Shown piece after piece: positions 1 through 18,556 of a stretch of DNA of 64,000 nt. Source of the stretch: a virus (Duplodnaviria; Heunggongvirae; Uroviricota; Caudoviricetes). The stretch's first letter is position 1, and each line of letters starts with the position of its first letter. The stretch is from positions 173,308 to 237,307 of the IMG/VR virus record IMGVR_UViG_3300043395_001986. One strand, 5' to 3'. Under the pieces are notes generated by a model. It had not been told where the DNA came from and searched no databases. It saw nothing but the letters and a program-made list of their open reading frames with translations. The position numbers and the translations under genes are program-made.

Positions 1-1176
1 GTTAAAATTTATGCAAGTAGTGGATATGGAACACCAGATACTTTAAGACAAGTTTTAAACGCAGAAAATCCAGATGCGGTATTACACTTTACTGACCCAA
101 GATATTGGATTTGGCTGTATGAAATTGAGCATGAAATCAGACAGCACACACCAATATTTTTCTATCATATTTGGGATGATTTACCAGACCCAAAATATAA
201 TCGTAATTATTACGAAAGTTGTGATTGGATTGGATGTATTTCTAAACAAACTTATGGTATTACGAAAAGAGTTTGGGGAAGTAATTCACAATCTCAATGG
301 AAACAACCAGAAGATTGGCAAGTGAGTTATGTACCACATGGTATTCGTTCAGATGTATATAAACCAGTAGATGTTCCTTCTGATTTTAAGAAACAAATAT
401 TAGGTGATAAAGAATATGATTTTATTGTTTATTGGACAAATAGAAATATTAGAAGAAAGCAACCAATTGAAGCGATTTTAGCATTTAATGAATTTGTTAA
501 ATCATTAAGTCCAGAACAACAAAAAAAGGTTGTTATGATAATGCACACACAACCTATTGACGATAATGGAACAGACCTCCCAGCTGTTGTTAGAGATTGT
601 TGTATAAGTGAATGTAATGTAATTTTTGATGATAGAAAAAGACCAGACGAAGAATTAAATCTATTGTATAATTTAGCAGATATTACACTTACACTTTCTT
701 CTAATGAGGGATTTGGATTGGGTACTGCCGAATCTATAATGGCGGGCACTCCTATAATTACGACAGTAACCGGTGGTTTACAAGACCAATGTGGATTTGA
801 AGTTGATGGAAAATATTTAACCGCTGATGATTATGTAAAGATTGGTTCTTTGCATGATAAAAAACAATATGATAAAGTAAAATATGGAGATTGGGTTAAA
901 CCAATTTGGCCAGTTCGTTCAGCAACCGGTTCTGTACCAACTCCATATATCTTTGATGATAGAATTGATTTTGATGATGTAACACCTCTTATTAAAAGTT
1001 GGTATGATATTGGAAGAGAGGCGAGAAAAGCAGCCGGCTTAAAGGGTAGAAAGTGGATGCTTGGCGATGGCGGATTGAGTGCAGAAAATATGTGTCAGAC
1101 ATTGGTAGATGGAATGGAAGGTGCATTTAAAAATTGGAAACCAAGAAAAAAATATGAATTGTTTAAAATAAAATAA
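1..1176 (+). CDS. Glycosyltransferase family 1/GT4-like (GT-B fold), 5'-truncated by window edge
   Basis: Frame 1 is open from base 1 to stop at 1176 (VKIYASSGYGTPDTLRQ... continuous into MSYVPHGIRS...); track ORF 322..1176 is only the part after the first Met. C-terminal GT-B signature EGFGLGTAESIMAGTPIITTVTGG (E-x7-E-like). Confidence 0.7.
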   Translation, partial: VKIYASSGYGTPDTLRQVLNAENPDAVLHFTDPRYWIWLYEIEHEIRQHTPIFFYHIWDDLPDPKYNRNYYESCDWIGCISKQTYGITKRVWGSNSQSQWKQPEDWQVSYVPHGIRSDVYKPVDVPSDFKKQILGDKEYDFIVYWTNRNIRRKQPIEAILAFNEFVKSLSPEQQKKVVMIMHTQPIDDNGTDLPAVVRDCCISECNVIFDDRKRPDEELNLLYNLADITLTLSSNEGFGLGTAESIMAGTPIITTVTGGLQDQCGFEVDGKYLTADDYVKIGSLHDKKQYDKVKYGDWVKPIWPVRSATGSVPTPYIFDDRIDFDDVTPLIKSWYDIGREARKAAGLKGRKWMLGDGGLSAENMCQTLVDGMEGAFKNWKPRKKYELFKIK

Positions 1177-1177
1177 A

Positions 1178-2455
1178 ATGGCAGAAATTCAAAAACCTTT
1201 ATTAGTATTTCAAGGACCTGTGGCAACGAGAAGTGGTTATGGTGACCACGCAAGAGATTTAGTTAGGTCTCTTATTGATATGAATAAATTTGACATAGTT
1301 GTAATATCTACTCGTTGGGGGTCAACTCCTATGACGGGACTACGAAACACAGAAGAAGATAGACAGATTTTAAATTTAATAGGAAAACAAGTTACTAGAA
1401 AACCAGACGTATACATTCAATTGACCGTAGCAAACGAATTTGAAGCAAAAGGAACATATAATATCGGTATTACAGCAGGTGTTGAAACAACCGCTGCACC
1501 AATTGAATTTATTCATGGTTGTAACAAAATGGATTTAATTATTGTACCTTCTCAATTTACAAAAGAAGTTTTACAAAAAACAGCTTATACAGAAAAAGAT
1601 AATCAAACAGGAAGAGTAATAGCAGAACATAGAATTGCAAAACCAATTGAAGTTCTTTTTGAAGGATTTAATGAAAAAACATTTGGAGCAGATGCCATTC
1701 CATATATTACCGAATTAGACCAAATAAAAGAAGATTTTGTATTTCTTTTTGCAGGTCATTGGTTGCAAGGTGGATTGGGACACGATAGAAAGGATGTGGG
1801 TATGTTAATAAAAACTTTTTGTCTAGCATTTGCAGGACAAAAGAATGCACCTGCATTAGTTTTAAAAACTTCATCAGCAGGATTTAGTGTATTGGATAGA
1901 GAATCAATGATTGCTAAAATAAAAACACTTACTGAACAATTTAAAATTTCCCCATCAATATATCTGTTACATGGTGAATTTACAGAGGAAGAAATGAATG
2001 GAGTTTATCACCACCCAAAAGTAAAAGCAATGGTTTCATTTACACATGGTGAAGGATTTGGTAGACCATTATTAGAATTCAGTTTGACGGGAAAGCCGGT
2101 GATTGCATCTAATTGGAGCGGTCATCTAGATTTCTTAAAAGATGGTGCAGTATTGTTAGATGGTAAGTTAGAAGATGTACATGAAAGTGCACAAAATCAG
2201 TTCCTAATTAAAGGAAGCAAATGGTTTTATGTAAATTACAATGAAGCTCTTAAGAAATTTAAAGATATTTATACTAACTATGATAAGTATAAAACACCTG
2301 CTTATCAATTAGGAAAACAAAATTTACAAAACTTTGGTTTAGAAAAGATGACAAAATTATTTGATACCATCTTAACAAACTATGTTCCACCGATAAAACA
2401 ATTTATACCATTAAATCTTCCAAATTTTGAAATAGTAGAAGACGATGCCGGATAA
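1178..2455 (+). CDS. Glycosyltransferase GT4-like (GT-B fold)
   Basis: C-terminal donor-binding motif FTHGEGFGRPLLEFSLTGKPVIASNWSGH typical of GT4/GT1 retaining glycosyltransferases; start 2 nt after previous stop. Confidence 0.72.
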   Translation: MAEIQKPLLVFQGPVATRSGYGDHARDLVRSLIDMNKFDIVVISTRWGSTPMTGLRNTEEDRQILNLIGKQVTRKPDVYIQLTVANEFEAKGTYNIGITAGVETTAAPIEFIHGCNKMDLIIVPSQFTKEVLQKTAYTEKDNQTGRVIAEHRIAKPIEVLFEGFNEKTFGADAIPYITELDQIKEDFVFLFAGHWLQGGLGHDRKDVGMLIKTFCLAFAGQKNAPALVLKTSSAGFSVLDRESMIAKIKTLTEQFKISPSIYLLHGEFTEEEMNGVYHHPKVKAMVSFTHGEGFGRPLLEFSLTGKPVIASNWSGHLDFLKDGAVLLDGKLEDVHESAQNQFLIKGSKWFYVNYNEALKKFKDIYTNYDKYKTPAYQLGKQNLQNFGLEKMTKLFDTILTNYVPPIKQFIPLNLPNFEIVEDDAG

Positions 2456-3029
2456 TTTACCATATTATAGACCTCTTTTTAAAAGAGAAGTATTAGTTCC
2501 ACCTATGAATGTTCAACCAGGGGGTTTTTATAGATTGTGGTCTTATACGACAGTAGAAGGAAAAAGTAAAAACTATGGTGGAACAAAAGCACCTATTTTA
2601 ATGGTAATTGGTACGGTCAAAAGTACCGGTTTAATACATGCAATAAGAGTAAGTGATTTACCAATTAATACTTTTATTAAATTCTTTAAACGAATTATGA
2701 ATAGAGAATTTATACAGGAGTCACTTAATATGGAATATCAAAACACATTCTTAAAGAGAAAGGATTTACATTATAGAAATAACGGAAATGCGTATGTGGT
2801 GGATGAGCCATTTGGTAGAAGTTTCTATCAAAGAATGATTGGTAGCAATAATCTTATCATGAATTACTATGAAACATATAGAACATATAAGATAAAAAAT
2901 ATAAAAAATATGAGAGAAGTGTATTTTGATTGGAAAAAATTTGTTAAAACACATCCACAATTGGGTAAATTTATAATACCAACAAAAACAACACCACCAC
3001 CTCCACCACCAAAAAAAGTAATAAAATAA
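2445..3029 (+). CDS. Hypothetical protein with C-terminal poly-Pro/Lys tail
   Basis: 194-aa ORF overlapping upstream stop by 11 nt; ends TTPPPPPPKKVIK; no recognisable catalytic motif. Confidence 0.4.
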   Translation: MPDNLPYYRPLFKREVLVPPMNVQPGGFYRLWSYTTVEGKSKNYGGTKAPILMVIGTVKSTGLIHAIRVSDLPINTFIKFFKRIMNREFIQESLNMEYQNTFLKRKDLHYRNNGNAYVVDEPFGRSFYQRMIGSNNLIMNYYETYRTYKIKNIKNMREVYFDWKKFVKTHPQLGKFIIPTKTTPPPPPPKKVIK

Positions 3030-3030
3030 T

Positions 3031-3654
3031 ATGAAATTAAGCTTTGCAGTTACGGTCTCAACGGAAATAAAAGAAATAGAAAATTTAATTAAGCTTTTAG
3101 CTAAAAGAACAAAAACTACTGAAATAGTTGTTCAATATGATAGTTCAAACACTACATTAGAAGTTATAGAATTTCTAAATAAAAGTTTAATTGAAAATAA
3201 AATAGATAAATTAGTATCATATCCTTTAAATGGTGATTTTGCTAATTTTAAAAATCATCTAAATGCAAATTGTAGTGGAGAATTTATTTATCAATTAGAT
3301 GCAGATGAATTGATTGATTCCAAATTTTTAAAAGCATTACCAAATGTATTGGATAACAATAAGGATATAGACCTTTTCTTTGTACCCAGAATCAATACAG
3401 TCAACGGATTAACAGAAGAACACATTCAAAAATGGGGATGGAATGTAAACGAAAAGGGTTGGGTAAACTTTCCGGATGTACAAACACGCATATACAAAAA
3501 CAAACAATCTATATTTTGGGCAGGTAAAGTTCACGAAAGAATACAGGGGTTTGAATCATATTCAGTATTACCAGCTGAAGAAATATATTGTATACAGCAT
3601 CATAAAGATATTAAAAGACAAGAAAAGCAAAACGCTTTATATGATACTATATGA
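3031..3654 (+). CDS. Putative glycosyltransferase family 2-like (GT-A fold)
   Basis: N-terminal beta-alpha-beta start (KLSFAVTVSTE), DxD-like YQLDADELID, aromatic-rich C-terminal half; sits among GT2 genes. Confidence 0.45.
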   Translation: MKLSFAVTVSTEIKEIENLIKLLAKRTKTTEIVVQYDSSNTTLEVIEFLNKSLIENKIDKLVSYPLNGDFANFKNHLNANCSGEFIYQLDADELIDSKFLKALPNVLDNNKDIDLFFVPRINTVNGLTEEHIQKWGWNVNEKGWVNFPDVQTRIYKNKQSIFWAGKVHERIQGFESYSVLPAEEIYCIQHHKDIKRQEKQNALYDTI

Positions 3655-4133
3655 ATTGGGTAATTTTTACAACAGAGTGTAGTGGTAAAACAACATTTGC
3701 TAAAAACAATAAATTCAATTTAAACGAATACCAAATTGTTGATTGGGATGTTATTAAGACAGTACCAGATATTAGATATGAAAATGAATTAATGTTTATT
3801 GATTTAATTGTAGAATTGCAAAAATCTGATAATAAAATATATCTAACAAATATAGTTCCACCTGATTTTATTTTTGGATGTAAAGATTATTTTAAAAATA
3901 TAAACTTTGCAATAATTCTTATAAAAGAAGAACAATTAATTAAAAATATTAAAAATAGGCATCATCCACAATATAATAGTCAATATATTATTGATAAATA
4001 CAATTCATTTAGAGTCAAAATTGGCATGAAAAATGAAAAAATAAAAGTATTTAACAATTTTGAAGAGTTTAAAAATTACTTATATCCACCAGCAAGTAAA
4101 TTAGAAATTAAACAAAGAATAATTAGGTTATGA
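3651..4133 (+). CDS. Hypothetical protein (degenerate P-loop-like N-terminus)
   Basis: 160 aa; TTECSGKTTFAKNN resembles a Walker-A-like loop but lacks the first Gly; ATGA overlap with neighbours. Confidence 0.35.
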   Translation: MNWVIFTTECSGKTTFAKNNKFNLNEYQIVDWDVIKTVPDIRYENELMFIDLIVELQKSDNKIYLTNIVPPDFIFGCKDYFKNINFAIILIKEEQLIKNIKNRHHPQYNSQYIIDKYNSFRVKIGMKNEKIKVFNNFEEFKNYLYPPASKLEIKQRIIRL

Positions 4134-4789
4134 AAGAAGTAACTGTCGTTTGTACAAGTTGTAATAGACCGGATTTATTAGAGAAAACACTAGAAAGTTT
4201 TTTTAAATATAACACATATGAATTAACTGCATTTCATATTATAGATGATAGTGCGGTTGTTGGTTGTAATGACCATTTAAAAGAAAAATTCCCATTAGTA
4301 AATTTTTGGTACAATCAAGTAAATTTAGGACAAGTTAATAGTATTGATAAAATATACGGATATGTAACCACTCCTTATGTATTTCATATGGAAGAAGATT
4401 GGGAATTTTACAAAGAAGGTTTTATAGAAGCGGCATTAGAAATTATTGATGTTGAAAAATGTATATGCGTAACTGTCAGAGATATAAATGATACTAAACA
4501 CCCAACAATACCACCAACATATCGAACTAAAAATGGAATACATTTTAGAAAATTAATGTGGGGGTTCGATGGTCATTGGCACGGATTTACATTCAATCCA
4601 TCTTTAAAGAAAATGAAAGATTATCCAGAAAATGGATATGCACCAATTGGTAGAGAATTAGATTTAAGTAAATATTATTATGAATTAGGTTATTTTGCAC
4701 TTACTTTCACCGAAGGATATTGTAGACATGCGGGTTGGGGTAGACATGTTACTGATAAAGGTGAAACGGCAGGATTTCAAACAAATTAA
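4130..4789 (+). CDS. Glycosyltransferase family 2
   Basis: MKEVTVVCTSCNRPDLLEKTLESFFKYN... classic GT2 N-terminus (VxxxTxNRxxxLxxxLxS); HIIDDSAV (DxD/DDS) motif. Confidence 0.6.
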   Translation: MKEVTVVCTSCNRPDLLEKTLESFFKYNTYELTAFHIIDDSAVVGCNDHLKEKFPLVNFWYNQVNLGQVNSIDKIYGYVTTPYVFHMEEDWEFYKEGFIEAALEIIDVEKCICVTVRDINDTKHPTIPPTYRTKNGIHFRKLMWGFDGHWHGFTFNPSLKKMKDYPENGYAPIGRELDLSKYYYELGYFALTFTEGYCRHAGWGRHVTDKGETAGFQTN

Positions 4790-4792
4790 AAT

Positions 4793-5995
4793 ATGAAAAT
4801 AAGTTTTTGTATACCGTCAAAAAACAATTTAAGATACCTTAAACATGCAATACACTATATTCAAAAAAATATAGGAGAAATTGATTATGAAATATTGGTA
4901 TGGATTGATAAAAATGAAGATGGAACTTACGAATGGCTAGAATCGGTTAGACCAAAAAATGTAAGATGGTGGTTAAACCCAAAACAAAATCCATTTGGTA
5001 TAGGTAACGCATATGATTTTTTAGTAGAAAATGCAGATAGTGAACTTATTATGATTTATCATGCTGATATGATAATGGGTAAGCATTGTATACAATATTT
5101 GTTAGAATATGTAAAAAAAGGAGTAGTAGTATCTGCAACAAGAGTTGAACCACCACTACACCCACCCTCAGCGGATAAAATAACATTAGATTTTGGATTA
5201 TGGCCAGAAGCGGATATAGAAGATGGATTTAGAGAGGAAGATTTTGAAGAATTTTGCGTAAGTAATACATTTAATAATTTTGAAACAACAAATGGTATAT
5301 TTGCACCATGGTTAATGTATAAAAGTGATTATATAGGACATGACCCTGCATTAAATTCATTGGCAGAAGATATGGATATATTTTTACGAATGAAATTAAA
5401 AGGATATGAATTTATACAACCAAGAGTTGCATTAGTATATCATTTAACATGCAGAGGTGGACAATTTGAACACGCTGTAAATACCGAAGATTTAAGAACT
5501 CGTAGTAGAGAATGGGAATGGCTAAGTATAAATAAAACAAGAGAATTTATTCGTAAATGGAAACATACACCTTTATTAGACAAAGTTGGCCATCCAATAG
5601 AAATACCAAGATACCAAATGGGAGTAAAGGTAATAAACACAAATACGGATTGGTTGTGGTTGTTTGATTTATATTTTGATAAGGTTTATTTAGAAAATCA
5701 ATCAATGAATGTAAAATTAGCAACCGATAGATATTTGAATTTTGAATCGCAAAATACAGCAACAAATTTATATACAAAATTTAGCAACACAGAGCAATCG
5801 GTAAAAGATTGCGATATTTACATTGAAATAGATTGTAATATCTTAAACACACAATCTCATCCACAATTTTTTGCAGAATTACCTTTCCATATTAAGAAAT
5901 ATGGAATTGAAGGCAAAAAAATGAAAGCGCTGGATATTCTATTTAAATTTAACAAATTAACTGAAAGACAAAAGGAGTATATTTATATAAAGTAA
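4793..5995 (+). CDS. Glycosyltransferase family 2 with ~200-aa C-terminal extension
   Basis: MKISFCIPSKNNLRYLKHAIHYIQKN (GT2 start), LVWIDKNEDGT, MIYHADMIM; long C-terminal domain of unknown function. Confidence 0.6.
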   Translation: MKISFCIPSKNNLRYLKHAIHYIQKNIGEIDYEILVWIDKNEDGTYEWLESVRPKNVRWWLNPKQNPFGIGNAYDFLVENADSELIMIYHADMIMGKHCIQYLLEYVKKGVVVSATRVEPPLHPPSADKITLDFGLWPEADIEDGFREEDFEEFCVSNTFNNFETTNGIFAPWLMYKSDYIGHDPALNSLAEDMDIFLRMKLKGYEFIQPRVALVYHLTCRGGQFEHAVNTEDLRTRSREWEWLSINKTREFIRKWKHTPLLDKVGHPIEIPRYQMGVKVINTNTDWLWLFDLYFDKVYLENQSMNVKLATDRYLNFESQNTATNLYTKFSNTEQSVKDCDIYIEIDCNILNTQSHPQFFAELPFHIKKYGIEGKKMKALDILFKFNKLTERQKEYIYIK

Positions 5996-6006
5996 AAAGA
6001 AGTTCT

Positions 6007-6624
6007 ATGGTGGATTACATAATGAACGAACTTCCTATACTAACAGATAGGGTTAACAAAACAATTAAAAGATATGATTGTGATGAATCCTATAAAGTTG
6101 AATATAAATTTAATGATTTTGGATATAGGTCATCCACAAATTATAGAGATTTATTAAAACAACGAAAAATAGTTTGCTTAGGATGTTCTTTTACAGAGGG
6201 GGTTGGTTTAGATGAAGATGAAACATGGCCATATCTATTATCACAAAAAATAGGATTGCCATTTTTTAATTTAGGAATGGTATGTGGCTCTCAAGGTTAT
6301 ATAATGTGGCAAATACAAAATGTATTAGATAAAATACAAACAGATAATATATTTGTATTAAAACCACCACCTGGTAGAATATTTGAATTAAGAGATGATT
6401 CATTTGATAATATACAATCTTGGAATTATGAAAAACCAGGAAAATCATATGGTAGATTGTATAAATTAAATGATTTTATGTTAGATTCTGTGTGTAATAC
6501 ACATAGAATTAGTTATTTGAGTTCAACCGATTATGGCAATAAGTGGGAAAAGGCAAAGGATGGACATCATTATGGAAAAGACTATCAAGAAATGATAGCA
6601 AATGAATTTTATAAAAATATGTAA
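6007..6624 (+). CDS. SGNH/GDSL-family hydrolase-like protein (paralog 1 of 7)
   Basis: Block I LGCSFTEGVGL (catalytic Ser in GCS), block II NLGMVCGSQG, block V DGHHYGKDYQEMIANEF (DGxH...); homologous to 8573, 9347, 10098, 25649, 54458, 55204 ORFs. Confidence 0.6.
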   Translation: MVDYIMNELPILTDRVNKTIKRYDCDESYKVEYKFNDFGYRSSTNYRDLLKQRKIVCLGCSFTEGVGLDEDETWPYLLSQKIGLPFFNLGMVCGSQGYIMWQIQNVLDKIQTDNIFVLKPPPGRIFELRDDSFDNIQSWNYEKPGKSYGRLYKLNDFMLDSVCNTHRISYLSSTDYGNKWEKAKDGHHYGKDYQEMIANEFYKNM

Positions 6625-6635
6625 ATTTATATAAT

Positions 6636-7040
6636 ATGCCAGCAGTAAGTAAAGCACAGCAAAGATTTTTCGGAATGGTGCATGCAGCACAAAAAGGAGA
6701 AAAACCAGCAAGTAAAGATGTAGCAGATGTAGCTAAAGATATTTCTAAAAAAGATGCCAAAGATTTTGCATCAACTTCACATGAAGGGTTACCAACACAT
6801 GTAAAGAAAGAATTTGCATATCCTACAAATAAAGAATTATGGAAAGAATGTATGGATAGTTTGGGTAAAGGAGCAACGGCAGTTAAGCAATATGAATTAA
6901 AAGGTGGTGGATGGAGACTGGGAGAAGCAGCGGATGAAAGAGTATATAATAAAATAACCGAATTATATGCTAATGAAATCAAACCAATAAAAGAAGCAAA
7001 GGCAAAAATCAGAGAATCGTTAAGAAAAAGAAATAAATAA
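6636..7040 (+). CDS. Conserved phage/bacterial protein of unknown function (SKAQQRFFGMVH N-terminal motif, DUF3008-like)
   Basis: N-terminus MPAVSKAQQRFFGMVHAAQKG matches a widespread uncharacterised family motif (recalled, not searched); basic C-terminus. Confidence 0.45.
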   Translation: MPAVSKAQQRFFGMVHAAQKGEKPASKDVADVAKDISKKDAKDFASTSHEGLPTHVKKEFAYPTNKELWKECMDSLGKGATAVKQYELKGGGWRLGEAADERVYNKITELYANEIKPIKEAKAKIRESLRKRNK

Positions 7041-7042
7041 AA

Positions 7043-7336
7043 ATGACACGAAAACAACTAAAAGAATTTGTTAGAAAATCTTTAATAGAAAGTGGAGTAA
7101 TAAAAGAACGATACACTTTGAAAGAAGAAGGTGGTGACCACGAAGTTGGTATGGCCATAAATTTATTAGATGATATTATAATGAATGCACAATCTTTAAA
7201 AGGTAAAATTGGAACATCCGAAAAAAATTTAGCTGGATGGATACAAGACCATATTTCTCAATCACAAAACTTCATCAGTCAGGCTAATACTGGATATCAC
7301 GAAATTGATGATAAGGAGGAAAATGAAAATGGATAA
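7043..7336 (+). CDS. Hypothetical protein
   Basis: 97-aa ORF, starts 3 nt after previous stop; acidic C-terminus. Confidence 0.4.
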   Translation: MTRKQLKEFVRKSLIESGVIKERYTLKEEGGDHEVGMAINLLDDIIMNAQSLKGKIGTSEKNLAGWIQDHISQSQNFISQANTGYHEIDDKEENENG

Positions 7337-7643
7337 TTTATACACAGTCTTAATATCAGTTGTATCAGTATTAGGTTCGGCAGCAGCTTTCCGCTTCTAT
7401 GAGAAGAAATCAATGAGAAAGGAAAGAGATGACGATTTTATTAGACATGATTGTAAAGATAGAATTGCAAAATTAGAAGCATTATTAAGCCAATCATCAA
7501 AAGAGAAAGATGAACTTCGTAATATGATTTTATCATTGACAAAAGAAGTTGCAGCATTGACCGTAAAAGTTGAATTCCTTACAAAAGAAAACGAAGAACT
7601 TCATAAAAAGTCAAAACCAGCAAAACAATTATTAAAAGGATAA
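7323..7643 (+). CDS. Hypothetical membrane-anchored coiled-coil protein
   Basis: N-terminal TM helix (LYTVLISVVSVLGSAAAF) then coiled-coil-like KLEALLSQSSKEKDELRNMILSLTKEVAALTVKVEFL; AGGAGG at 7314-7319 sits 9 nt upstream of the second in-frame ATG (7329), which may be the true start. Confidence 0.4.
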   Translation: MKMDNLYTVLISVVSVLGSAAAFRFYEKKSMRKERDDDFIRHDCKDRIAKLEALLSQSSKEKDELRNMILSLTKEVAALTVKVEFLTKENEELHKKSKPAKQLLKG

Positions 7644-7652
7644 TTTGTAAAA

Positions 7653-8576
7653 GTGAGTAAAAGAGTTTTAAATGAATTTTTTGGATTAACACCTCAAATA
7701 AAAAATACAAATTGGAATGGTGTTAATATTGAATTGGGTAAAGTTTATTCCAATCCATTCGCTCGTTCATTTAAACCAATAAAAGAAGCAACGAAAGAAG
7801 AAATAAAAAAGAAAAAATTAAGAATATTTGATTTTGATGATACATTAGTAAAAACAAAATCATTTATATATGTTAAACATAAAAACGGAGAAAAATCAAA
7901 ATTATCACCTGGAGAATATGCGGTATATGATAAAAAAGAAGGAGATGAATTTGATTACTCTGATTTTGAAAAGGTAAATGAACCAGAAGAAATTAAAAAA
8001 TACACAAATCTTTTAAGAAAATTTATCGAATCAACCGGTAAAAGAAATGTTGCAATACTAACTGCTAGAGGTGCATACCAACCTGTTAGAGAATACTTAA
8101 AGGATATTGGTATGGGTGATGTATATGTTGCAGCATTGGGTGATAGTGACCCACAAAAGAAAGCAGATTGGATTGAAGATAAAATCAAAAAACATAAATT
8201 TAATGACATCTATTTTGTAGATGATTCTCATAAAAACGTAAAAGCGGTTGGTGAATTAAAAACCAAATATCCAGATGTTACTTTTAAAATTCAACACGTT
8301 AAACACAACGGAAAGTATTGGGCAGATAGAAAAGAAGATAGTAAAGATACAGGTGATTCAAATCAGATAGCAGCAACAGAAAAACCAAAATCAATATCAA
8401 CACCTGATTGGGAAACATTTAAAAATAAATCTACAAAAGAAAAGAAAGATATTTTAGATAAAACAATTAAAAATACTGAAACTGGTAGAAATATTAAATT
8501 AAGAACTGCTCTTAATTATGATGATAAAAAAGCTGTTTATAAAGCAGCTGTTCGTTACTTAAAAACACAAAAATGA
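7653..8576 (+). CDS. HAD-superfamily phosphatase-like protein
   Basis: HAD motif I RIFDFDDTLV (DxDxT), motif II ILTARG, motif IV YFVDDSHKNV; only possible in-frame start after upstream stop is GTG at 7653. Confidence 0.5.
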   Translation: MSKRVLNEFFGLTPQIKNTNWNGVNIELGKVYSNPFARSFKPIKEATKEEIKKKKLRIFDFDDTLVKTKSFIYVKHKNGEKSKLSPGEYAVYDKKEGDEFDYSDFEKVNEPEEIKKYTNLLRKFIESTGKRNVAILTARGAYQPVREYLKDIGMGDVYVAALGDSDPQKKADWIEDKIKKHKFNDIYFVDDSHKNVKAVGELKTKYPDVTFKIQHVKHNGKYWADRKEDSKDTGDSNQIAATEKPKSISTPDWETFKNKSTKEKKDILDKTIKNTETGRNIKLRTALNYDDKKAVYKAAVRYLKTQK

Positions 8577-9343
8577 ACTCATTAAGGTTTTGGAAAAAAA
8601 GTGGTTTTGATGTTGGTACATATGATTGGAAGTTAGAAAATAGAAGAAATAAAACAACTAATATTTCAGGTTCCGATAATTCACAAACAAATACATACAC
8701 TTATAACGAATTAGGATTTAGAGGAGATTCCATTTATAAAAATGGATTTCGTATAATGTCCGTTGGTTGTTCACATACGGAAGGAGTTGGTGTGAATGAT
8801 GACCAATCTTGGCCTCATTACTTTTCACAATTAGTAAATAATGGTGTTGATTTAAACGCAGGGTTTGGTGGAAGAAGTAATGATTACATAGCAAGATGTA
8901 TTATTACAATGGTAGACACATTTAGACCACAATTGGTTAATATAATGTATACCTACCCATCTCGTAAAGAATATTATAGATACAATGGTGATTTGGAGCC
9001 ATTTCATATGAATCCATGGGGATATTTTGCGGATGATATTGAGGGGAAAGAAGAATATAAAGCAATAGCAAGAATTACTCATGATGAAAACGATTTAATA
9101 AATTGGTATAAAAATCATTTATTAATAACAAATTTTCTAAAAGCAAGAAACATAGCATATACTTGGAATGGTTGCTTTTTAATGGATGAAGTAGTTACCG
9201 ATGCAAATAGATTTGATGGTGATTACGGAAATTTCAGAGAATTTTCAATAGATGGTAAACACGCAACAGCAGAACATAATCAAAAATACGCACAAAAATT
9301 ATATAATTTTATTTTGAAAAATGAAATCATTGAGTTACCTTAA
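8573..9343 (+). CDS. SGNH/GDSL-family hydrolase-like protein (paralog 2)
   Basis: Block I SVGCSHTEGVGV, block II GFGGRSNDYI, block V DGKHATAEHNQKYAQKL; ATGA overlap with upstream gene. Confidence 0.6.
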   Translation: MNSLRFWKKSGFDVGTYDWKLENRRNKTTNISGSDNSQTNTYTYNELGFRGDSIYKNGFRIMSVGCSHTEGVGVNDDQSWPHYFSQLVNNGVDLNAGFGGRSNDYIARCIITMVDTFRPQLVNIMYTYPSRKEYYRYNGDLEPFHMNPWGYFADDIEGKEEYKAIARITHDENDLINWYKNHLLITNFLKARNIAYTWNGCFLMDEVVTDANRFDGDYGNFREFSIDGKHATAEHNQKYAQKLYNFILKNEIIELP

Positions 9344-9346
9344 CAT

Positions 9347-10114
9347 ATGAATTGTTTTGTAAAAATATTTGGATGTTCACATTCTGCTGACGGCCCCTTT
9401 CGCAATACAGATAAATTGATATCTTTTTTTAAATCAAATGGATATGAAAATGTATATGTAAAAAATATAGCACATTCTGGAAATGCAAACGATAAAATAA
9501 TAAATGATGTTTATGAAAATGCAGAAATGGAATTGGGAGAAAATATATTTTACATAATACAATATTCTTATTTAAATAGATTGTGGTTACCAAATGATAT
9601 GAATATGATTTTTCATAGTTTTTTATTAGATGAAAAAACAGGTGAATGGCCACCATATATACCAATTGAAAAACGAAAATATTTAAAAAGTATGTATGAG
9701 TCGTTTGTAACTTGTTTTTATAGCGATAAATTGTATTTTGATGATTTGATTAAAAAGATTACATTTTTAAAAACATATTTAGATAGTAAAAATATTAAAT
9801 TTATACATTTTTTATGGGAAGCAGTATCTAGTGAAGAAGAAATGGTAGAATCGAGAAACGAGTTTCATAAATTGTATTTAACGGATAAAATAAAAACAGG
9901 CGAAATAGATAAACGATATTTCAATAAATTAAAAAATTTAGAATTAATAGAATTTGAAAAAAATATATTTAATTTTAGTAAAATATCATTTGATAAAAAA
10001 ATAACAAATTGGCATACATTTGGTGGCGGTAATTTTGATTTGCATTTAACAAATGAAGGAAATGATTTTTTAAGTGAAATTCTATTAAATAAGTTATATG
10101 AAAAAATACAATAA
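9347..10114 (+). CDS. SGNH/GDSL-family hydrolase-like protein (paralog 3, divergent)
   Basis: Block I IFGCSHSADGP, block II NIAHSGNANDKI, block V DLHLTNEGNDFLSEIL. Confidence 0.5.
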   Translation: MNCFVKIFGCSHSADGPFRNTDKLISFFKSNGYENVYVKNIAHSGNANDKIINDVYENAEMELGENIFYIIQYSYLNRLWLPNDMNMIFHSFLLDEKTGEWPPYIPIEKRKYLKSMYESFVTCFYSDKLYFDDLIKKITFLKTYLDSKNIKFIHFLWEAVSSEEEMVESRNEFHKLYLTDKIKTGEIDKRYFNKLKNLELIEFEKNIFNFSKISFDKKITNWHTFGGGNFDLHLTNEGNDFLSEILLNKLYEKIQ

Positions 10115-10943
10115 ATTATATAGCAATGGTTGCTCTTATATGTGGGGACACGGACATAACAATGTTAATATTTTCCATATGTTTGAAGAAACGAAAAATA
10201 TAGATATATCTGAAAAAATGATATATGAAAAAAATTCGTTTTTTAATAATTACGATTGGGTTAGAAAAAAGTTTCAATATCCGAAATTAGTTGCTGACCA
10301 TTTTGGATTAGAATTAATAGATGAATCAATATATGGTGGTAGTTTTGAAAGAGTATATAGAAAAACAATGCAATATATTCTTAAAACAAAAGATATATCT
10401 GATACTATATTTTTATTAGAATGGCCAAACGGAAGTAGAAGTGAATTTTGGTCGAATACAAGTAATAGATTCATCAATCTAACAGCAATGCGAGATAATT
10501 TCGATAATGTTGATTTTGATGATTTTGGGCAAGCAGGTAATTGGTATTATAGATTCTATGACCCAAATATATTTCAAATAAATGAAATTTTTATGGGTTT
10601 AACTTTAAAAAATTATATAGAATCATTGGGTGGTATTGCTGTTTTCTGTTTATGTGATAATTTAGAATTTTGTTTTAAACACGACACAAAAAATGTTGTT
10701 AGTAAGTATTTGAATGAAGATGATTTACGTGAAAAATTAGAAAAAGAAATATATCCAAATTGTGTTTTGTTTGAAAAGGGAATGAATAAAAATTATAATT
10801 TAATATATTACTACTTACATTTAGAAAAAGCAGCATTCAAATACGATACAAATGGGCTATTCAAAGATGAACATAATTCTTTCAGAGGATCGAGACTTAT
10901 TGCAGAGAATATAATAAAACACATAGAAAATGTTACAAATTAA
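10098..10943 (+). CDS. SGNH/GDSL-family hydrolase-like protein (paralog 4, divergent)
   Basis: Block I YSNGCSYMWGHGH, block II ESIYGGSFERV, block V DEHNSFRGSRLIAENI. Confidence 0.5.
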   Translation: MKKYNKLYSNGCSYMWGHGHNNVNIFHMFEETKNIDISEKMIYEKNSFFNNYDWVRKKFQYPKLVADHFGLELIDESIYGGSFERVYRKTMQYILKTKDISDTIFLLEWPNGSRSEFWSNTSNRFINLTAMRDNFDNVDFDDFGQAGNWYYRFYDPNIFQINEIFMGLTLKNYIESLGGIAVFCLCDNLEFCFKHDTKNVVSKYLNEDDLREKLEKEIYPNCVLFEKGMNKNYNLIYYYLHLEKAAFKYDTNGLFKDEHNSFRGSRLIAENIIKHIENVTN

Positions 10944-11931
10944 AATAATACAACCAGATAGATTAGAAAGATTTAATGTTAATTCTGATTTACATAAATT
11001 ATTACCATTCAAAGCAAGAGGTGATGAAAATAATATTATATTTGAAAATTCTAATGATGCTGATATAAACATAGTAAGTTCTTTTCATTTAAAACAATTA
11101 TATAAAAATGAACAATTTTCTGAAATAGAAAATATAGGTAAAAAAATATTAATAATTGATAATATACATGAACATTTGGATATAACCGATTTGGAAAATA
11201 TATCAAAATATTTAGAAAAAAAACCAATAGTTTTTACTGCAAACATTTTATTATACAATTCGGATTTATGTTATACACCATCAAAAGAATTTGCAATATA
11301 TCAATTTTATGATGTTTTACATAGAACTGATTTTATAGAAAATAGGAAGTATGATGTAGTTTCATTTAACAACGCAGTAAGACCATATAGGGATTCATTA
11401 GTAAATAAACTTCTTGAAAAAAAGAAAGAATTTGATGTTATCACATATCTTTTATCAGATATAGCTGGTGTTAAAGAATTTAATAAAAAGTTTAAATGGA
11501 AACATGATGCATATATTGATGTTCAATTTACAATCGCCAACTCATATCTAAATGTATATTCGGAATCTATGTTTTCTCAAAAGCACACCGGAAATCAAAG
11601 TGTAAAAGTAACAGAAAAAACATATTGGAATTTAGTAACGGGTACACCTTTTTTATCTTTTGAGTATAATAATGATAAATTAGATTTTTTAAAAAGTTTT
11701 GGGTTCTATACATTTGATGATTTGAATTTATTTCCAAATGAAGATTTTGATTACAATAAGACCGTAGAGTTCTTAAACACTAAAATTGATTACATATATA
11801 ATATGGATTTAATTGAATATTTTAACAACAATATAGTATTTTGTAAAAATAATAATGTTTTATCTAGAAATATTTTAGAAAATTATAATTTTAAAGAAGA
11901 TTTTACAAAATTATTAGATTCAAATTTTTGA
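10930..11931 (+). CDS. Unknown paralog family 'X' member 1 (putative glycan-processing enzyme)
   Basis: C-terminal region FSQKHTGNQSVKVTEKTYWNLVTGTPFLSFEY...LDFLKSFGFYTFDDLNLFPNEDFDYNKTVEFL aligns with FSEKTIKGLFSPRPFILHSYPFSLKKLRKLGFKTFDFLFDEEYDNIVDHEQRL of 36261 ORF and the equivalent in 37418 ORF. Confidence 0.5.
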   Translation: MLQIKIIQPDRLERFNVNSDLHKLLPFKARGDENNIIFENSNDADINIVSSFHLKQLYKNEQFSEIENIGKKILIIDNIHEHLDITDLENISKYLEKKPIVFTANILLYNSDLCYTPSKEFAIYQFYDVLHRTDFIENRKYDVVSFNNAVRPYRDSLVNKLLEKKKEFDVITYLLSDIAGVKEFNKKFKWKHDAYIDVQFTIANSYLNVYSESMFSQKHTGNQSVKVTEKTYWNLVTGTPFLSFEYNNDKLDFLKSFGFYTFDDLNLFPNEDFDYNKTVEFLNTKIDYIYNMDLIEYFNNNIVFCKNNNVLSRNILENYNFKEDFTKLLDSNF

Positions 11932-11959
11932 AATGGATAGTTGACATATACTTATTAGT

Positions 11960-12604
11960 ATGACAACAATCATAAAAATAAAAAACTATATTGCAGATAA
12001 GATAGCAATATTTTTCCTGGCATTAGTAGGTATATGGATTGCTTTTGCATTATTATTCCAACTTACAATGGTGGGTATACATTTTAGTGGAAATACACAA
12101 TTAGAAACAGATATTGCAAATTGGTTTAGTTGGAAATTTGATGGTACATTCAAAAACTCACCAGAAAATATTTGGTATAATGCAGAGGAACATGTTTGGG
12201 TTGAAAGTGTAGAAAATAAAGTTAAAGTTGGTAAATTAGCTGGAAACAGAAATTTAGCATTCGGTGTTAAAAATGTTTTGGAAGAAGCATTGCAAGAAAA
12301 AGGATTGGATTTAGCACCATCAGCAACACAAAAATTAAAAGTTGAAATTATCTATTTAGATGTTTTAACAACAAAATCAAATATCTCCGTATTTCACAAA
12401 GGAGAAGAGGAAGTAGTCATCCGCCTTAAAGGTACAATTTACAAAGATGGCAAAAAAGACAAAGAGGTTATAGTTGAAGAAAGTTCTGCTGAAATCTCAA
12501 TGTCAACGCTCATAATAGATGAAGGTGGTAAGTTTAACCAGACTTCTTTAAGCAATGCATTGAAGAAAGGTTCTGTTAAACTTATTACTAAACTATTTGA
12601 GTAA
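11960..12604 (+). CDS. Membrane-anchored hypothetical protein
   Basis: Two N-terminal hydrophobic helices (IAIFFLALVGIWIAFALLFQLTMVGI); soluble C-terminal domain. Confidence 0.45.
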   Translation: MTTIIKIKNYIADKIAIFFLALVGIWIAFALLFQLTMVGIHFSGNTQLETDIANWFSWKFDGTFKNSPENIWYNAEEHVWVESVENKVKVGKLAGNRNLAFGVKNVLEEALQEKGLDLAPSATQKLKVEIIYLDVLTTKSNISVFHKGEEEVVIRLKGTIYKDGKKDKEVIVEESSAEISMSTLIIDEGGKFNQTSLSNALKKGSVKLITKLFE

Positions 12605-12606
12605 AT

Positions 12607-14271
12607 ATGAAAAAATTATCATTGTTAGTTGCAGCTTTGTTTGTAACTATACTATCATTTGGACAAATTGTTGTTAATCAATCGGTATCATCTGGACCAT
12701 ACAAGGTTGGGGATACAATAACAATAACATATACTGTCAATAAAGGTGAAACCAAGCCTCGTTATTTTTGGTTACGATACCAATATAACAATAAGGCGTT
12801 AACTTATCTTTCAACTACATTTTCACAAGGTAGCCAATCACAAACTTATTATACAGGTTGGACAAACTATAAGTTTACTCCAAATGCAAATATAGCAGAT
12901 ACTTCGTTGTATGCACAATATAATTCTACACCTTGGGGATATGTAACAAATGCAGATTGGAATGTTGGGCAATTAGCAGTTCAAAGAGCAGATAAAAGTA
13001 TAGATGGTGTATTAGCAACTCAAAAATACATTCTTAAAGACCAAAATGCATATGCGAACTTTCATAAATTAGACCTTTCATACGCAACGGATAGTGCAAG
13101 CGGTGTATATATTCCATATGTAAAAACAACTTCGGGTCCTTTATCAATAACTGGCGTAACAGGCAATACATCATATTTTAAAGTAAGAGTATTATACCCA
13201 TCCGGATATAGTATTACTGACCACAATGTTCAATTGATGCCACTTAAAACCGATGGTAGTGGTGATATAGATTGGGCAAAACAACCAATAGCACAAAAAG
13301 TATTAGATGCAAGTGGTGAAGCCTTATTCACATCTGGAATTAAAGTTGGTGATAGTGTTGGTGTATTTGTTTCAAACGCATCCCAAAAAAGTTGGATGAA
13401 TAATGTGATAACTGTCTCTGATGCATATAAAGCATTTTTAGGTATAACTCAAACAGATTTGACGGGAGTTCCAACATATTTCCAAAGACCAGCATTAGAA
13501 AAGAAAATTGGTAATGTAACTAAAAACGATATGGACTTTACAGAGGCAGATGCATACAATTTATTTGCATATGTAATGGGACAAGATGTATCAGCAAACG
13601 CATTTATTCCAACATCAACCGCAACTTCATGGAGATGGCATAGTGGTTTATTAAATCAAAGTTGGTTAAACGGAACGGCGACAAATAAAGTATATGTAAC
13701 AGCACCACAACAAACAGCAGAAGCGGTATTTGCATGGGGTGGTGATTTAGACTGGTCACATTCATCTTTTCCTGATACAATCGCAGCAAGAATAGCAAGT
13801 GGTATCTATACAAACGCAGTTAATCCTGGTACATCGGATGTAGCTAATATTAAAACTATGGCAGTTTCAACAAACACATCAATTGCATATAATTCGGCTA
13901 CATTAGAAACAATATCATTGGGTGTAACTTCTAAATTGGAAGGTGGTAAAGTTGTATTAAGTACAAACTTAACAAAAGAAGGTTTAGCAGGTTTACAGGT
14001 CATAATGCAATACGATAGCACAAAATTAAGTTTAGATAATGTAATATTCAATACAGGTTCAACAATGACAAACTTCTCAACAAAAGCAGATGGTAGACTG
14101 ACTTTTGGTTCTATTGACCAATTAAAAACTGCGCGAATTAAAGTTGGAACACCTTATATATTGATATTCACTCCAAAGGTAACATTAAATAATACAGCAG
14201 GTTTATTCTATTTCGTATTAGCAGATGCAGTTGACGGAAACGGAAACAAACTAAATCTAAACATAGAATAA
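12607..14271 (+). CDS. Secreted modular protein with dockerin-like repeats and C-terminal cohesin-like domain
   Basis: Sec signal MKKLSLLVAALFVTILSFGQ; VITVSDAYKAFLGITQTDLTG and NDMDFTEADAYNLFAYVMGQD resemble dockerin Ca-binding repeats; C-terminus KVVLSTNLTKEGLAGLQVIMQYDSTKLSLDNVIFNTGS...DGRLTFGSID matches the cohesin pattern (..V.V.L....GF.G.QF.L.YD...L......G). Confidence 0.6.
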   Translation: MKKLSLLVAALFVTILSFGQIVVNQSVSSGPYKVGDTITITYTVNKGETKPRYFWLRYQYNNKALTYLSTTFSQGSQSQTYYTGWTNYKFTPNANIADTSLYAQYNSTPWGYVTNADWNVGQLAVQRADKSIDGVLATQKYILKDQNAYANFHKLDLSYATDSASGVYIPYVKTTSGPLSITGVTGNTSYFKVRVLYPSGYSITDHNVQLMPLKTDGSGDIDWAKQPIAQKVLDASGEALFTSGIKVGDSVGVFVSNASQKSWMNNVITVSDAYKAFLGITQTDLTGVPTYFQRPALEKKIGNVTKNDMDFTEADAYNLFAYVMGQDVSANAFIPTSTATSWRWHSGLLNQSWLNGTATNKVYVTAPQQTAEAVFAWGGDLDWSHSSFPDTIAARIASGIYTNAVNPGTSDVANIKTMAVSTNTSIAYNSATLETISLGVTSKLEGGKVVLSTNLTKEGLAGLQVIMQYDSTKLSLDNVIFNTGSTMTNFSTKADGRLTFGSIDQLKTARIKVGTPYILIFTPKVTLNNTAGLFYFVLADAVDGNGNKLNLNIE

Positions 14272-14274
14272 TAA

Positions 14275-16932: not shown

Positions 16933-17831
16933 TGAAAAAAATATTATTAATCATATCATTGGTTTTAATTGGATTTGTATCAAACGCACAAATACAAAAA
17001 CCTGATACATTACAATTATCCGCAAAAGAATTATTTGGAGAGAGTGATGATTGGAATGATGTGGGTATATTACAATCCTATATTGATTTCTCAAAAGATG
17101 TTCTTTCATCATCAAATCTTTCGGTTGGTATAATTGGAAAACAGGTATCAACAACACTTAATTTAGGATATAGTAAATCATCACTAAATGGAAAATGGGC
17201 ACATACATTTGCAGCATCAATAAATCCTTTATGGAAATATTATGGAGTGGGATATGGTTTAAGTAGAAATACTGAAAAGAGAACAACAACAATACAAACA
17301 TTTTATTCTACGGATTTTGATTTTCAAAAAGATATTAACCTATCATTTATTGATGTGTTTAGAACTAAAAAATGGGGAACATTTGGATATAGTTTAACTG
17401 CATCAAAAACATTTTGGGGAGAATATGAAAATGTTTCTGCTTGGGAAGGTAAGTTTATTGTTGATGAAAATGGTAATTGGGTAAAAAACATATATCCAAT
17501 AGACCCAGCATCATCTGAACTTACTTATAGAGGTATGGCAATGTACACATATACATTGAAAACAAAAAGAGTGAATATATCACCACAGGTATTTGCAATG
17601 AGTGATATATACAAAGTATTCAAAAATGGTGGCACATCTGATTTTTCGTACTTTGATGATTTCAATTTGGACTTATATTATGGAGTATCTATGGATTGGA
17701 AAATAACTAAAAGATTTGTGTTGAATACCAATGTTAGATATAACACAACTTGGGATACATTAAGTGAATCAGTTGGATATAAAAAGAGTAACCCAATCCT
17801 ATTTATGATAGGAACAAACTTTCAATTTTAA
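16932..17831 (+). CDS. Secreted outer-membrane beta-barrel-like protein (paralog of C-terminal domain of 22856 ORF)
   Basis: Signal MKKILLIISLVLIGFVSNAQ; alternating hydrophobic beta-strand pattern; C-terminal aromatic (..NFQF); ISPQVFAMSD...ITKRF.LNTNVRYN aligns with ISPQVFGMNS...ISKRFGFSFNYRAS of 22856 ORF. Confidence 0.5.
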   Translation: MKKILLIISLVLIGFVSNAQIQKPDTLQLSAKELFGESDDWNDVGILQSYIDFSKDVLSSSNLSVGIIGKQVSTTLNLGYSKSSLNGKWAHTFAASINPLWKYYGVGYGLSRNTEKRTTTIQTFYSTDFDFQKDINLSFIDVFRTKKWGTFGYSLTASKTFWGEYENVSAWEGKFIVDENGNWVKNIYPIDPASSELTYRGMAMYTYTLKTKRVNISPQVFAMSDIYKVFKNGGTSDFSYFDDFNLDLYYGVSMDWKITKRFVLNTNVRYNTTWDTLSESVGYKKSNPILFMIGTNFQF

Positions 17832-18175: not shown

Positions 18176-18176
18176 G

Positions 18177-18545: not shown

Positions 18546-18556
18546 AAAGTAACAAA

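Follow-up and report, generated by a model that had tools for sequence, protein, structure and literature searches.

In chloroviruses and mimiviruses, soluble viral glycosyltransferases (GTs) work in the cytoplasm without a lipid carrier, and a conserved core glycan receives strain-specific decoration. Among bacteriophages, Freeman et al. 2023 are said to have described virion-glycosylating actinophages (Che8, Corndog and Myrna) that decorate capsid and tail-tube proteins with phage GTs, whose genes are located among the structural genes. Other phages direct such enzymes to their DNA: T4 glucosylates hydroxymethylcytosine (hmC) and RB69 poly-arabinosylates 5-hydroxycytosine (5hoC). Outside the actinophages and the DNA-modifying relatives of T4, we know of no GT-rich island of an aquatic phage for which the acceptor has been assigned. 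Large aquatic phages often carry such islands, and similar clusters have been described in them before. Marine T4-like cyanophages and pelagimyophages (P-SSM2, S-SCSM1, S-SCSM2R) carry many soluble GTs, up to 13 and including GT10 and GT11 members, together with sugar-modifying genes in variable regions, their function being hypothesised (PMC12801897, PMC7029224). The cyanomyovirus S-SCSM2R has 13 GTs (PMC12801897), and many GT and lipopolysaccharide (LPS) genes occur in pelagimyophages (PMC7029224). Here, an island of this type is described at positions 1-11931 of a 64,000-nucleotide stretch (hereafter, the window) of the IMG/VR virus record IMGVR_UViG_3300043395_001986 (positions 173,308 to 237,307), which belongs to the Caudoviricetes. 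The island encodes six GTs, four SGNH-like paralogs, a HAD-like phosphatase and a P-loop protein, and a seventh GT is found at 20001 (Table 1). As read from gene content in related loci, it consists of a constant phage core, namely the genes of two GT-B enzymes (GT-B1 and GT-B2), of a small protein and of a GT2 enzyme, and of a lineage-specific periphery. Our tentative reading, to which we give slightly less than an even chance, is that the island acts as a cytoplasmic line for the assembly and tailoring of an oligosaccharide in a large T4-like phage.

Table 1. Features of the island and of associated genes in the window (aa, amino acids)
Position	Strand	Feature	Evidence
1-1176	+	GT-B1, GT4-type, first core gene; 5' end cut by window edge	PF00534, 36.3 bits
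1178-2455	+	GT-B2, GT4-type, 425 aa, core	PF00534, 27.2 bits
2445-3029	+	Small fast-evolving protein, 194 aa, proline-rich tail, between GT-B2 and core GT2	Orthologs at same position
3031-3654	+	Core GT2, GT-A fold, 207 aa	PF00535, 32.3 bits; DAD at residue 90
3651-4133	+	Small protein with Walker-A-like SGKT motif, lineage-specific	Read from sequence
4130-4789	+	Accessory GT2, 219 aa	PF00535, 37.7 bits; EED replaces DxD
4793-5995	+	GT2, 400 aa, with 180-aa C-terminal extension	PF00535, 44.7 bits; PF13641
6007-6624	+	SGNH-like paralog 1 (putative esterase/acyl-transfer enzyme)	BLASTP to 8573-9343, 3e-14; GCS...DGHH
6636-7643	+	Three small proteins	DUF3008 (PF11450) at 6636-7040; acidic 97-aa protein; coiled-coil 112-aa protein
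7653-8576	+	HAD-superfamily phosphatase-like protein, lysine-rich C-terminal extension	Pfam DUF2608, 33.7 bits
8573-9343	+	SGNH-like paralog 2	BLASTP to 6007-6624; motifs; family profile
9347-10114	+	SGNH-like paralog 3, most divergent	GCSH and D-L-H motifs in alignment
10098-10943	+	SGNH-like paralog 4	BLASTP to 25649-26545, 1.5e-9, and to 6007-6624, 0.002; motifs
10930-11931	+	Divergent predicted GT-B-fold GT, 333 aa (earlier "unknown family")	Predicted structure
11960-19945	+	Block of exported and membrane proteins, continuous with island array	Signal peptides, lipoboxes
19963-19987	+	Intrinsic terminator	11-bp stem, 5 G-C pairs, T tail
20001-20696	+	Seventh GT, GT2, beyond terminator	PF00535, 44.0 bits; DAD motif
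20764-21495	+	LpxH-like metallophosphoesterase, UDP-sugar/lipid pyrophosphatase type	Metallophos, 53.4 bits
25649-26545	+	SGNH-like paralog 5, outside island	BLASTP to 10098-10943, 1.5e-9; GSSH...DYH
55204-55839	+	SGNH paralog 6, far from island	GDS, GNSN and DxxH blocks; weak Pfam Lipase_GDSL_2, 4e-4

The core is shared with two cultured phages, Flavobacterium phage immuto and Microcystis phage Mel-JY01. In both, as in the source phage, a gene for a PD-(D/E)XK nuclease is followed by GT-B, GT-B, small-protein and GT2 genes, in this order, and the proteins are 35-48% identical. Both cultured phages belong to a T4-like lineage of 155-190 kb phages, a described group of which immuto is a member (PMC11348598). 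The same gene order is found in 14 IMG/VR loci and in 27 loci of the GTDB species set, GT-B2 having GT-B1 next to it in every case. All 27 GTDB loci are on contigs of metagenome-assembled genomes whose labels clash (Bacteroidetes, Pelagibacter, Gracilibacteria, Saccharibacteria, Methanobacteriota, Woesearchaeota), and this incongruence is the signature of mis-binned phage contigs. In total, about 40 viral or mis-binned contigs are syntenic with the core. In the GTDB species set, two peptide patterns characteristic of the core GT family matched no isolate genome. Since the family was found on phage-like contigs only, a recent capture of host LPS genes is not indicated. Relatives of the island are detectable at the protein level only, a megablast search against 50,697 phage records having returned zero matches. 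Further phage markers are present in the window (a phage-type DNA ligase that is ATP-dependent, a pair resembling CobS and CobT, and a number of strong PHROG matches) and upstream of its start, on the overlapping JGI contig L003, where a clamp loader, Cpn10 and the PD-(D/E)XK nuclease are encoded. Synteny with cultured phages and a phage-only distribution identify the island as phage DNA, and a host genomic island, the possibility by which the original prediction could have fallen, is rejected.

The major capsid proteins of immuto and Mel-JY01, which are T4-like, are 54% identical and their GT-B2 proteins about 45%; on these identities, vertical inheritance of the core is proposed. The source phage itself is probably a T4-like, immuto-related phage of jumbo size, about 237 kb, and its host is most likely a flavobacterium. 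The relationship with immuto is distant, as just 13 ORFs (open reading frames) of the window match that phage. The original prediction regarded an island of such a scale as typical of giant viruses and not of ordinary phages. This does not agree with the comparable cluster of immuto (160 kb), nor with the 13 GTs of S-SCSM2R and the GT-rich pelagimyophages.

Around the core, the gene content varies from lineage to lineage. A 118.8-kb ENA contig (L018) shares the arrangement of the window, with its extra GT2s, SGNH paralogs, HAD protein, GT10-like enzyme and exported block, at about 53% identity. Another related locus, L006, is mostly window-like, but its exported block and GT2/phosphoesterase pair are upstream of the core. 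The 400-aa GT2 is shared with immuto; the immuto periphery otherwise comprises more GTs and also two WecE-type aminotransferases, an epimerase, a methyltransferase and an acetyltransferase-like protein, the latter four types being absent from the window. Conversely, two extra GT2s, the GT10-like enzyme, four to six SGNH paralogs and the HAD and P-loop proteins distinguish the window from immuto. An epimerase and WecE are found in L010 and L011, and canonical GDS-type SGNH enzymes in L011 and L012. In L014 and L016, the periphery includes a 946-aa GT2, a phosphoenolpyruvate mutase, a split thiamine-pyrophosphate decarboxylase, a class-V aminotransferase, a cytidylyltransferase and an FkbM methyltransferase. 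In L014, which is the IMG/VR contig IMGVR_UViG_3300030202_003496, these genes occupy 12234-20818, straight after the GT core. They resemble a branch for 2-aminoethylphosphonate, which suggests phosphonate-decorated phage glycans.

Some of the conserved genes are themselves interrupted. In four related loci (L017:6112-10744; L002:10501-11992; L042:7992-9396; L038:3852-6398), GT-B1, GT-B2 or both are divided over two ORFs, with extra ORFs or spacers between the halves in L017 and L042, and the annotation of Mel-JY01 divides GT-B1 into two genes. The ORF inserted at 9052-9948 of L017 resembles a GIY-YIG homing endonuclease in its N-terminal sequence. These splits suggest an invasion of conserved genes by mobile elements, or else frameshifts. 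Upstream of the core, the PD-(D/E)XK (PDDEXK_1) nuclease (L003:2445-3317) is located 5' of GT-B1 in every locus that reaches far enough, and the trio made of the nuclease and the two GT-B genes persists at 29% identity (L044, L045). The genes beyond the nuclease differ: lysis genes in immuto, S-adenosylmethionine synthase in Mel-JY01 and Cpn10 in the source phage. The nuclease may be functionally coupled to the core, or it may be a stable neighbour in the block.

Assignment of the GTs was made by scanning the larger ORFs with Pfam, NCBIfam and PHROG, and matches were judged against the Pfam curated cut-offs (26.4 bits for Glycos_transf_1, 23.3 for Glycos_transf_2 and 21.5 for Metallophos). The two GT4-like GT-B and three GT2 enzymes originally reported within about 12 kb all score above these cut-offs, as do the further GT2 and the metallophosphoesterase reported around 20001, so that a dense set of enzyme families for building and tailoring glycans is indeed supported; the count was slightly understated. 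With NCBIfam, the island and GT proteins gave just generic sub-threshold likeness (MshA, BshA, EpsD, PgaC), and weak similarities of the GTs extend to VpsD and an LPS GlcNAc-transferase. GT-B1 and GT-B2 are members of GT4/Glycos_transf_1, a family of retaining GT-B enzymes, by profile, by EX7E motif (EGFGLGTAE and EGFGRPLLE, respectively) and by solved relatives, with a predicted activity. The EX7E glutamates are invariant in the ortholog alignments of both. Frame 1 of GT-B1 is open from base 1 of the window, although the ORF list gives 322-1176, and the full-length protein of 459 aa is complete on L003. When a profile of GT-B1 orthologs was compared with solved structures, the best match was the chlorovirus NY-2A protein B736L (E 1.3e-12, the next being at 1e-6), with further matches to TreT, BshA and MshA. 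The GT-B2 profile matches WbaZ-1 (4.8e-4) and B736L (3.3e-3). At the sequence level, GT-B2 is 43-45% identical to gp180 of immuto and to its homolog in Mel-JY01.

The four proteins starting at 3031, 4130, 4793 and 20001 are members of GT2/Glycos_transf_2, a family of inverting GT-A enzymes, by profile, and their GT activity is predicted as well. The core GT2, 45% identical to gp178 of immuto, is kept in nearly all related loci. The accessory enzyme at 4130-4789 has an ortholog of 74% identity in L006, and the 400-aa GT2 is 35% identical to gp169 of immuto across its full length. A DxD motif is recognised as DAD in two of the four (3031 and 20001); EED stands in its place in 4130 and none is clear in 4793, where HAD is found at the expected place. 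Between GT-B2 and the core GT2, the small protein evolves rapidly. Its orthologs in loci L005-L017 are 24-34% identical and occupy the same place, a word-indexed search returned just 5 close relatives, and Pfam and PHROG scans were blank; the immuto-type relatives carry at this position a different, 150-aa zinc-ribbon protein. The protein at 3651-4133, blank in the Pfam, PHROG and NCBIfam scans, is a possible kinase or NTPase in view of its SGKT motif.

The last gene of the island, at 10930-11931, had been described as an unknown enzyme-like protein with a paralog. No paralog of it exists in the window, and it now models as a GT-B enzyme. About 11 close homologs are available, and an exhaustive HMMER search returned about 20 distant relatives, in which R, E and (T)EK residues are invariant and a PF...GF.TFD segment recurs. 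Neither the protein nor its close homologs nor ten of the distant ones match Pfam, and PDB sequence searches were blank. An AlphaFold model obtained from an 18-sequence alignment reached a predicted local distance difference test score (pLDDT) of 73 and a predicted template modelling score of 0.69; a model from 8 close homologs was unusable (pLDDT 42), and it was the addition of distant homologs that gave a usable one. The fold of this medium-confidence model is GT-B, nearest to GT10 fucosyltransferases and GT47 exostosins. Its neighbours include a phage DNA glycosyltransferase and the T4 α- and β-glucosyltransferases and, in a viral structure library, many uncharacterised proteins of uncultured tailed phages and GTs of giant viruses. 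The R/E/TEK motif is, we presume, also GT10-like. Filing the protein as GT10 was set aside, as the fold is GT10-like but sequence-profile support is nil. With this GT10-like protein modelled as a GT-B enzyme, the 12 kb would hold six GTs and the region seven.

The GTs are interleaved with the SGNH-like paralogs, which the original prediction called putative acyl esterases. Four island members (6007, 8573, 9347, 10098) stand as paralogs, and two more are found at 25649 and 55204; their assignment as SGNH enzymes is probable, not proven, with weak support by profiles. The first five (6007, 8573, 9347, 10098, 25649) match neither Pfam (E<0.01) nor PHROG, 9347-10114 has no BLASTP link to the others by itself, and the Lipase_GDSL_2 score of 55204-55839 (21.4 bits) is under the cut-off. 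Alignment of these five with two orthologs from a related contig brings out an invariant N-terminal G-x-S and an invariant C-terminal His, preceded one or two residues before by an Asp (D-x(1,2)-H). A canonical GDS is found in 55204, in the L006 ortholog of 8573-9343 (64% identity, block I GDSHTEG) and in the L011/L012 relatives. Compared with structures, the joint profile of the paralogs matches the GDSL-family protein 4rsh (E 7.6e-4), most of the next matches being AlgX, rhamnogalacturonan acetylesterase and PatB, and JGI labels some homologs "lysophospholipase L1-like esterase". As they carry no signal peptide, these enzymes would act in the cytoplasm. Among the other periphery proteins, the HAD-like phosphatase also has a sub-threshold NCBIfam HAD-IA match (26.3 bits) and matches PHROG 415, the phosphatase part of polynucleotide kinase. 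Orthologs of the three small proteins at 6636-7643 are present in L006 and L018; the 112-aa coiled-coil protein has a single N-terminal membrane segment.

The window has a G+C content of about 30% and nearly all its genes are on the + strand. Within the island, neighbouring genes overlap slightly or stand at most 11 nt apart, and the array continues to 18871 with spacers of at most 28 nt. The sole convincing + strand intrinsic terminator within 1-20000 is the one at 19963-19987, which sets the long array apart from the GT2/phosphoesterase pair at 20001-21495. A scan for sigma-70 promoters gave fewer matches than shuffled sequences and is hence uninformative. Considering the single strand, the tight spacing and the position of the terminator, the island genes are probably co-transcribed. 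A hydrophobicity and signal scan detected neither membrane segments nor signal peptides in the island enzymes, all of which are therefore predicted to be soluble and cytoplasmic.

Considering these properties, the tentative reading of the island as an oligosaccharide assembly and tailoring line can be broken down into steps. The inherited, phage-specific core (GT-B1, GT-B2, the small protein and GT2) would build an inner glycan from host nucleotide sugars. Lineage-specific genes, here those of two GT2s and of the GT10-like GT-B enzyme, would lengthen this glycan, and the four SGNH-type enzymes would add or remove O-acyl groups. Preparation of a sugar donor may fall to the HAD phosphatase and the P-loop protein. 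The island genes would thus be taken to act on one common product. Phages of Flavobacterium and of Microcystis, two hosts with different envelope glycans, have retained one and the same core. From this we infer that the phage itself supplies the acceptor, as a protein of the virion or another of its proteins, and that the acceptor is not an envelope glycan specific to one host.

A phage protein is our best guess for the acceptor, held at somewhat below even confidence. The likeness of GT-B1 to B736L is in favour of it, as is the failure to find the core GT family in isolate bacterial genomes. Giant viruses supply both the best solved relative of GT-B1 and GTs among the fold relatives of 10930-11931; the likeness to B736L is, however, confined to the C-terminal nucleotide-binding domain, and the lineage of the source phage is not known to have a glycosylated phage protein. 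Apart from these relatives, GT-B2 has homologs in the phage collection only among Arthrobacter phage GTs, with 27% identity across half of the protein. Their genes stand between those of the tail terminator and the tail chaperone, a layout shared with the virion-glycosylating actinophages, which also speaks for a phage-protein acceptor. The actinobacteriophages differ in having 1-4 GTs inside the structural module, whereas the island of the source phage adjoins replication genes.

Several observations weigh against a phage-protein acceptor and against the assembly line as a whole. Replication genes upstream and genes of exported proteins flank the island; capsid and tail genes do not. It is common for enzymes of GT4 and GT2 to use lipid-linked acceptors at the inner membrane without membrane segments of their own, and solubility is therefore compatible with a remodelling of host glycans. 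The constant link with the PD-(D/E)XK nuclease could indicate a nucleic acid. An uncultured 484-kb phage, whose capsid protein is 51% identical, gives no GT-B2 match, so that the core does not follow the capsid lineage. Relying on two peptide patterns, the search of isolate genomes was not exhaustive; the SGNH assignment has weak profile evidence and the GT10-like one depends on a medium-confidence model.

The leading alternative is that the island remodels the host envelope, which we consider unlikely but far from negligible. In this case, the soluble GTs would add sugars, at the inner face of the host membrane, to undecaprenyl-linked intermediates of LPS, capsule or O-glycans, the SGNH enzymes would alter O-acylation, and host flippases and ligases would export the changed glycan. 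The benefit would be superinfection exclusion, or fewer progeny lost on debris. Such a function is the usual reading of GT-rich islands in marine T4-like phages (PMC7029224, PMC12801897). It is consistent with the families found, GT4 and GT2 being those of LPS and capsular polysaccharide enzymes, with the weak likeness to EpsD, VpsD and the LPS GlcNAc-transferase, with the LpxH-like enzyme and exported lectin-like proteins nearby, and with a hypervariable periphery that fits an arms race at the cell surface. The marine islands differ from the present one in that they are located in the tail-fibre/host-recognition region and are accompanied by nucleotide-sugar enzymes, and the core GT-B pair has no match in those cyanophages and pelagimyophages in the phage collection. 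Against remodelling of the host stands the failure of the Pfam, NCBIfam and PHROG scans of the larger ORFs to find an initiating phosphoglycosyl transferase, a flippase, polymerase or ligase (Wzx/Wzy/WaaL), a Gtr-type membrane component or a nucleotide-sugar enzyme; an epimerase and WecE occur in relatives (immuto, L010, L011). The notion of a complete surface-glycan factory is not supported for the same reason, since the enzymes are predicted to be soluble and the scans found no genes for export, initiation, polymerisation or nucleotide-sugar supply. In addition, the core is 43-48% identical between flavobacterial and cyanobacterial phages, whose hosts differ in envelope glycans, its GT family is seen on phage-like contigs only, and the LpxH-like gene is located behind the terminator and is solitary in other phages.

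Sugar hypermodification of DNA is an improbable alternative. In this model, the GTs would glycosylate a hydroxylated base, the HAD phosphatase and a kinase would activate the sugar, and the PD-(D/E)XK enzyme would destroy unmodified host DNA. T4-like phages do hypermodify DNA with clusters of several GTs, a kinase and a HAD phosphatase (PMC13326640; bioRxiv 10.1101/2023.12.21.572611). The island likewise has several GT-B and GT-A enzymes with HAD-like and P-loop proteins, the nuclease is linked to GT-B1/GT-B2 in all loci reaching upstream, the most divergent included, and a phage DNA GT and the T4 enzymes are fold neighbours of 10930-11931. However, no enzyme was found for the hydroxylation of the base that defines these clusters (T4 α-/β-glucosyltransferase, RB69/DLP3 arabinosyl-5hoC, and MT/5mYOX-dependent types): scans of the island, of 3.5 kb of upstream sequence on L003 and of the larger ORFs of the window, the many small ORFs being unscanned, yielded no thymidylate-synthase-type hydroxylase, TET/5mYOX enzyme or cytosine methyltransferase. 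Moreover, virion DNA of immuto, which has the same core and more GTs, contains canonical dA, dC and dT, with fdPreQ1 replacing dG, and liquid chromatography-mass spectrometry revealed no glycosylated base (PMC10516641).

A sub-case of the phage-protein acceptor, with which its estimate therefore overlaps, is that the neighbouring exported proteins, including the serine-rich one at 22856-24355, are glycosylated before or during export, which the original prediction specifically suggested. We give it little chance. Adjacent GT-B1 and GT-B2 recall the GtfA/GtfB pair of GT-B enzymes that glycosylates serine-rich adhesins in Gram-positive bacteria, but the match to GtfA is weak (E 0.039). The island and the exported block form one unbroken gene array, their adjacency is kept in L018 and, with a changed order, in L006, and 22856-24355 has a long Ser/Ala-rich tract. 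On the other side, glycosylation in the cytoplasm followed by export needs a dedicated route, and none is encoded; most core-bearing loci show no such block nearby. In immuto, the counterpart block (a secreted nuclease, a C-type lectin, a cohesin-like protein and a homolog of 21501 with 58% identity) is about 35 kb away from the GT cluster, so that the adjacency is not conserved. Two classes of glycan pathway are dismissed: a full Wzx/Wzy- or ABC-dependent O-antigen or capsule locus is rejected, as the ORFs of 1-26545 include none of its polytopic membrane proteins and its Pfam families were not matched, and so is a Gtr seroconversion module (GtrA/GtrB/GtrC), given that the GT2s have no membrane segments and that no GtrA- or GtrC-like protein was found.

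That exported proteins directly follow the island is borne out by signal peptides or lipoprotein boxes on proteins across 11960-25022, by lectin-like domains and by the lack of a terminator in between. In the block at 11960-19945, three proteins are secreted, two of them large and one of 299 aa; the others are a membrane-anchored protein, two lipoproteins and small membrane proteins. The two large proteins (12607-16932) have in common a C-terminal region of about 290 aa (E 2e-6), and the second carries LCCL (5.7e-15) and Lectin_C (9e-4) domains, both of which are unusual for phages; comparable proteins of immuto are annotated as C-type lectin and cohesin domain proteins. Further downstream, 22856-24355 encodes an exported protein of 499 aa with a run of about 150 Ser/Ala residues followed by Lys/Glu-rich (EEKK) repeats. 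At their C-terminal ends, this protein and the 299-aa exported protein at 16932-17831 are similar (31% identity, E 4e-5), domain scans of both being blank. The protein at 24387-25022 combines an N-terminal signal peptide with an Endonuclease_NS domain (DNA/RNA non-specific, E 1e-32) and is thus a secreted phage nuclease, the immuto homolog of which adjoins the lectin/cohesin block of that phage.

Beyond the terminator, the metallophosphoesterase aligns over its full length with the model NF003743 of LpxH (UDP-2,3-diacylglucosamine diphosphatase), at 59.2 bits for a cut-off of 134, and a true LpxH was rejected on this account. In Pelagibacter phage Mosig and Synechococcus phage S-SRM01, its homologs occur as solitary genes. 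In view of these solitary genes and of the terminator before the pair, the GT2/LpxH-like pair was also rejected as a functional part of the island. The GT2 at 20001-20696 has an ortholog of 87% identity in L005/L006, and the pair as a whole (20001-21495, against L005/L006:2623-4037) is conserved to the same degree, compared with 41-78% for adjoining genes, which points to unusually strong conservation or a recent exchange.

Elsewhere in the window, 28617-31988 encodes a CobT-like (704 aa) and CobS-like AAA+ (407 aa) pair that is common in large aquatic phages. Two ORFs at 36261-39263 (388 and 378 aa) have no Pfam or PHROG match and are directly 5' of a 243-aa protein resembling PfkB-family carbohydrate kinases (PHROG 8133, E 9e-80); they may form another sugar-related module. 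A SPFH/Band-7 protein (PHROG 200) is encoded at 33127-34050 and an FG-GAP repeat protein at 51977-53137. The best phage match of the ATP-dependent DNA ligase (46327-47430), at 47% identity, is in a 595-kb uncultured phage.

What is new here is a syntenic, phage-specific core present in two cultivable phages, the placing of the 10930 family among GT-B enzymes, as its model suggests, and evidence against the DNA and full-export readings. Carried further, the phage-protein reading becomes possible but doubtful: GT-B1, GT-B2 and GT2 would be the ancient phage-specific core of a broad T4-like lineage of aquatic phages, whose hosts range from Bacteroidota to Cyanobacteria. These phages would glycosylate their own proteins in the cytoplasm without a lipid carrier and add an outer decoration specific to each sub-lineage. 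In such a scheme, the decorations would be fucose-like sugars and O-acyl groups in the source phage, amino sugars in immuto and aminoethylphosphonate in L014, and the PD-(D/E)XK nuclease would be either a coincidental neighbour of the core or part of a coupled function. This would be a bacteriophage counterpart of the autonomous capsid glycosylation of chloroviruses and mimiviruses. Because the core is present in cultured immuto and Mel-JY01, the question of what is glycosylated is directly testable. Should the acceptor be at the host surface, the island would give the first concrete support to the old hypothesis on the "LPS genes" of cyanophages and pelagiphages. Should it be a virion protein, the abundant myoviruses of marine and fresh waters would join giant viruses and actinophages in encoding their own glycan coats, with a bearing on adsorption, grazing and particle stickiness.

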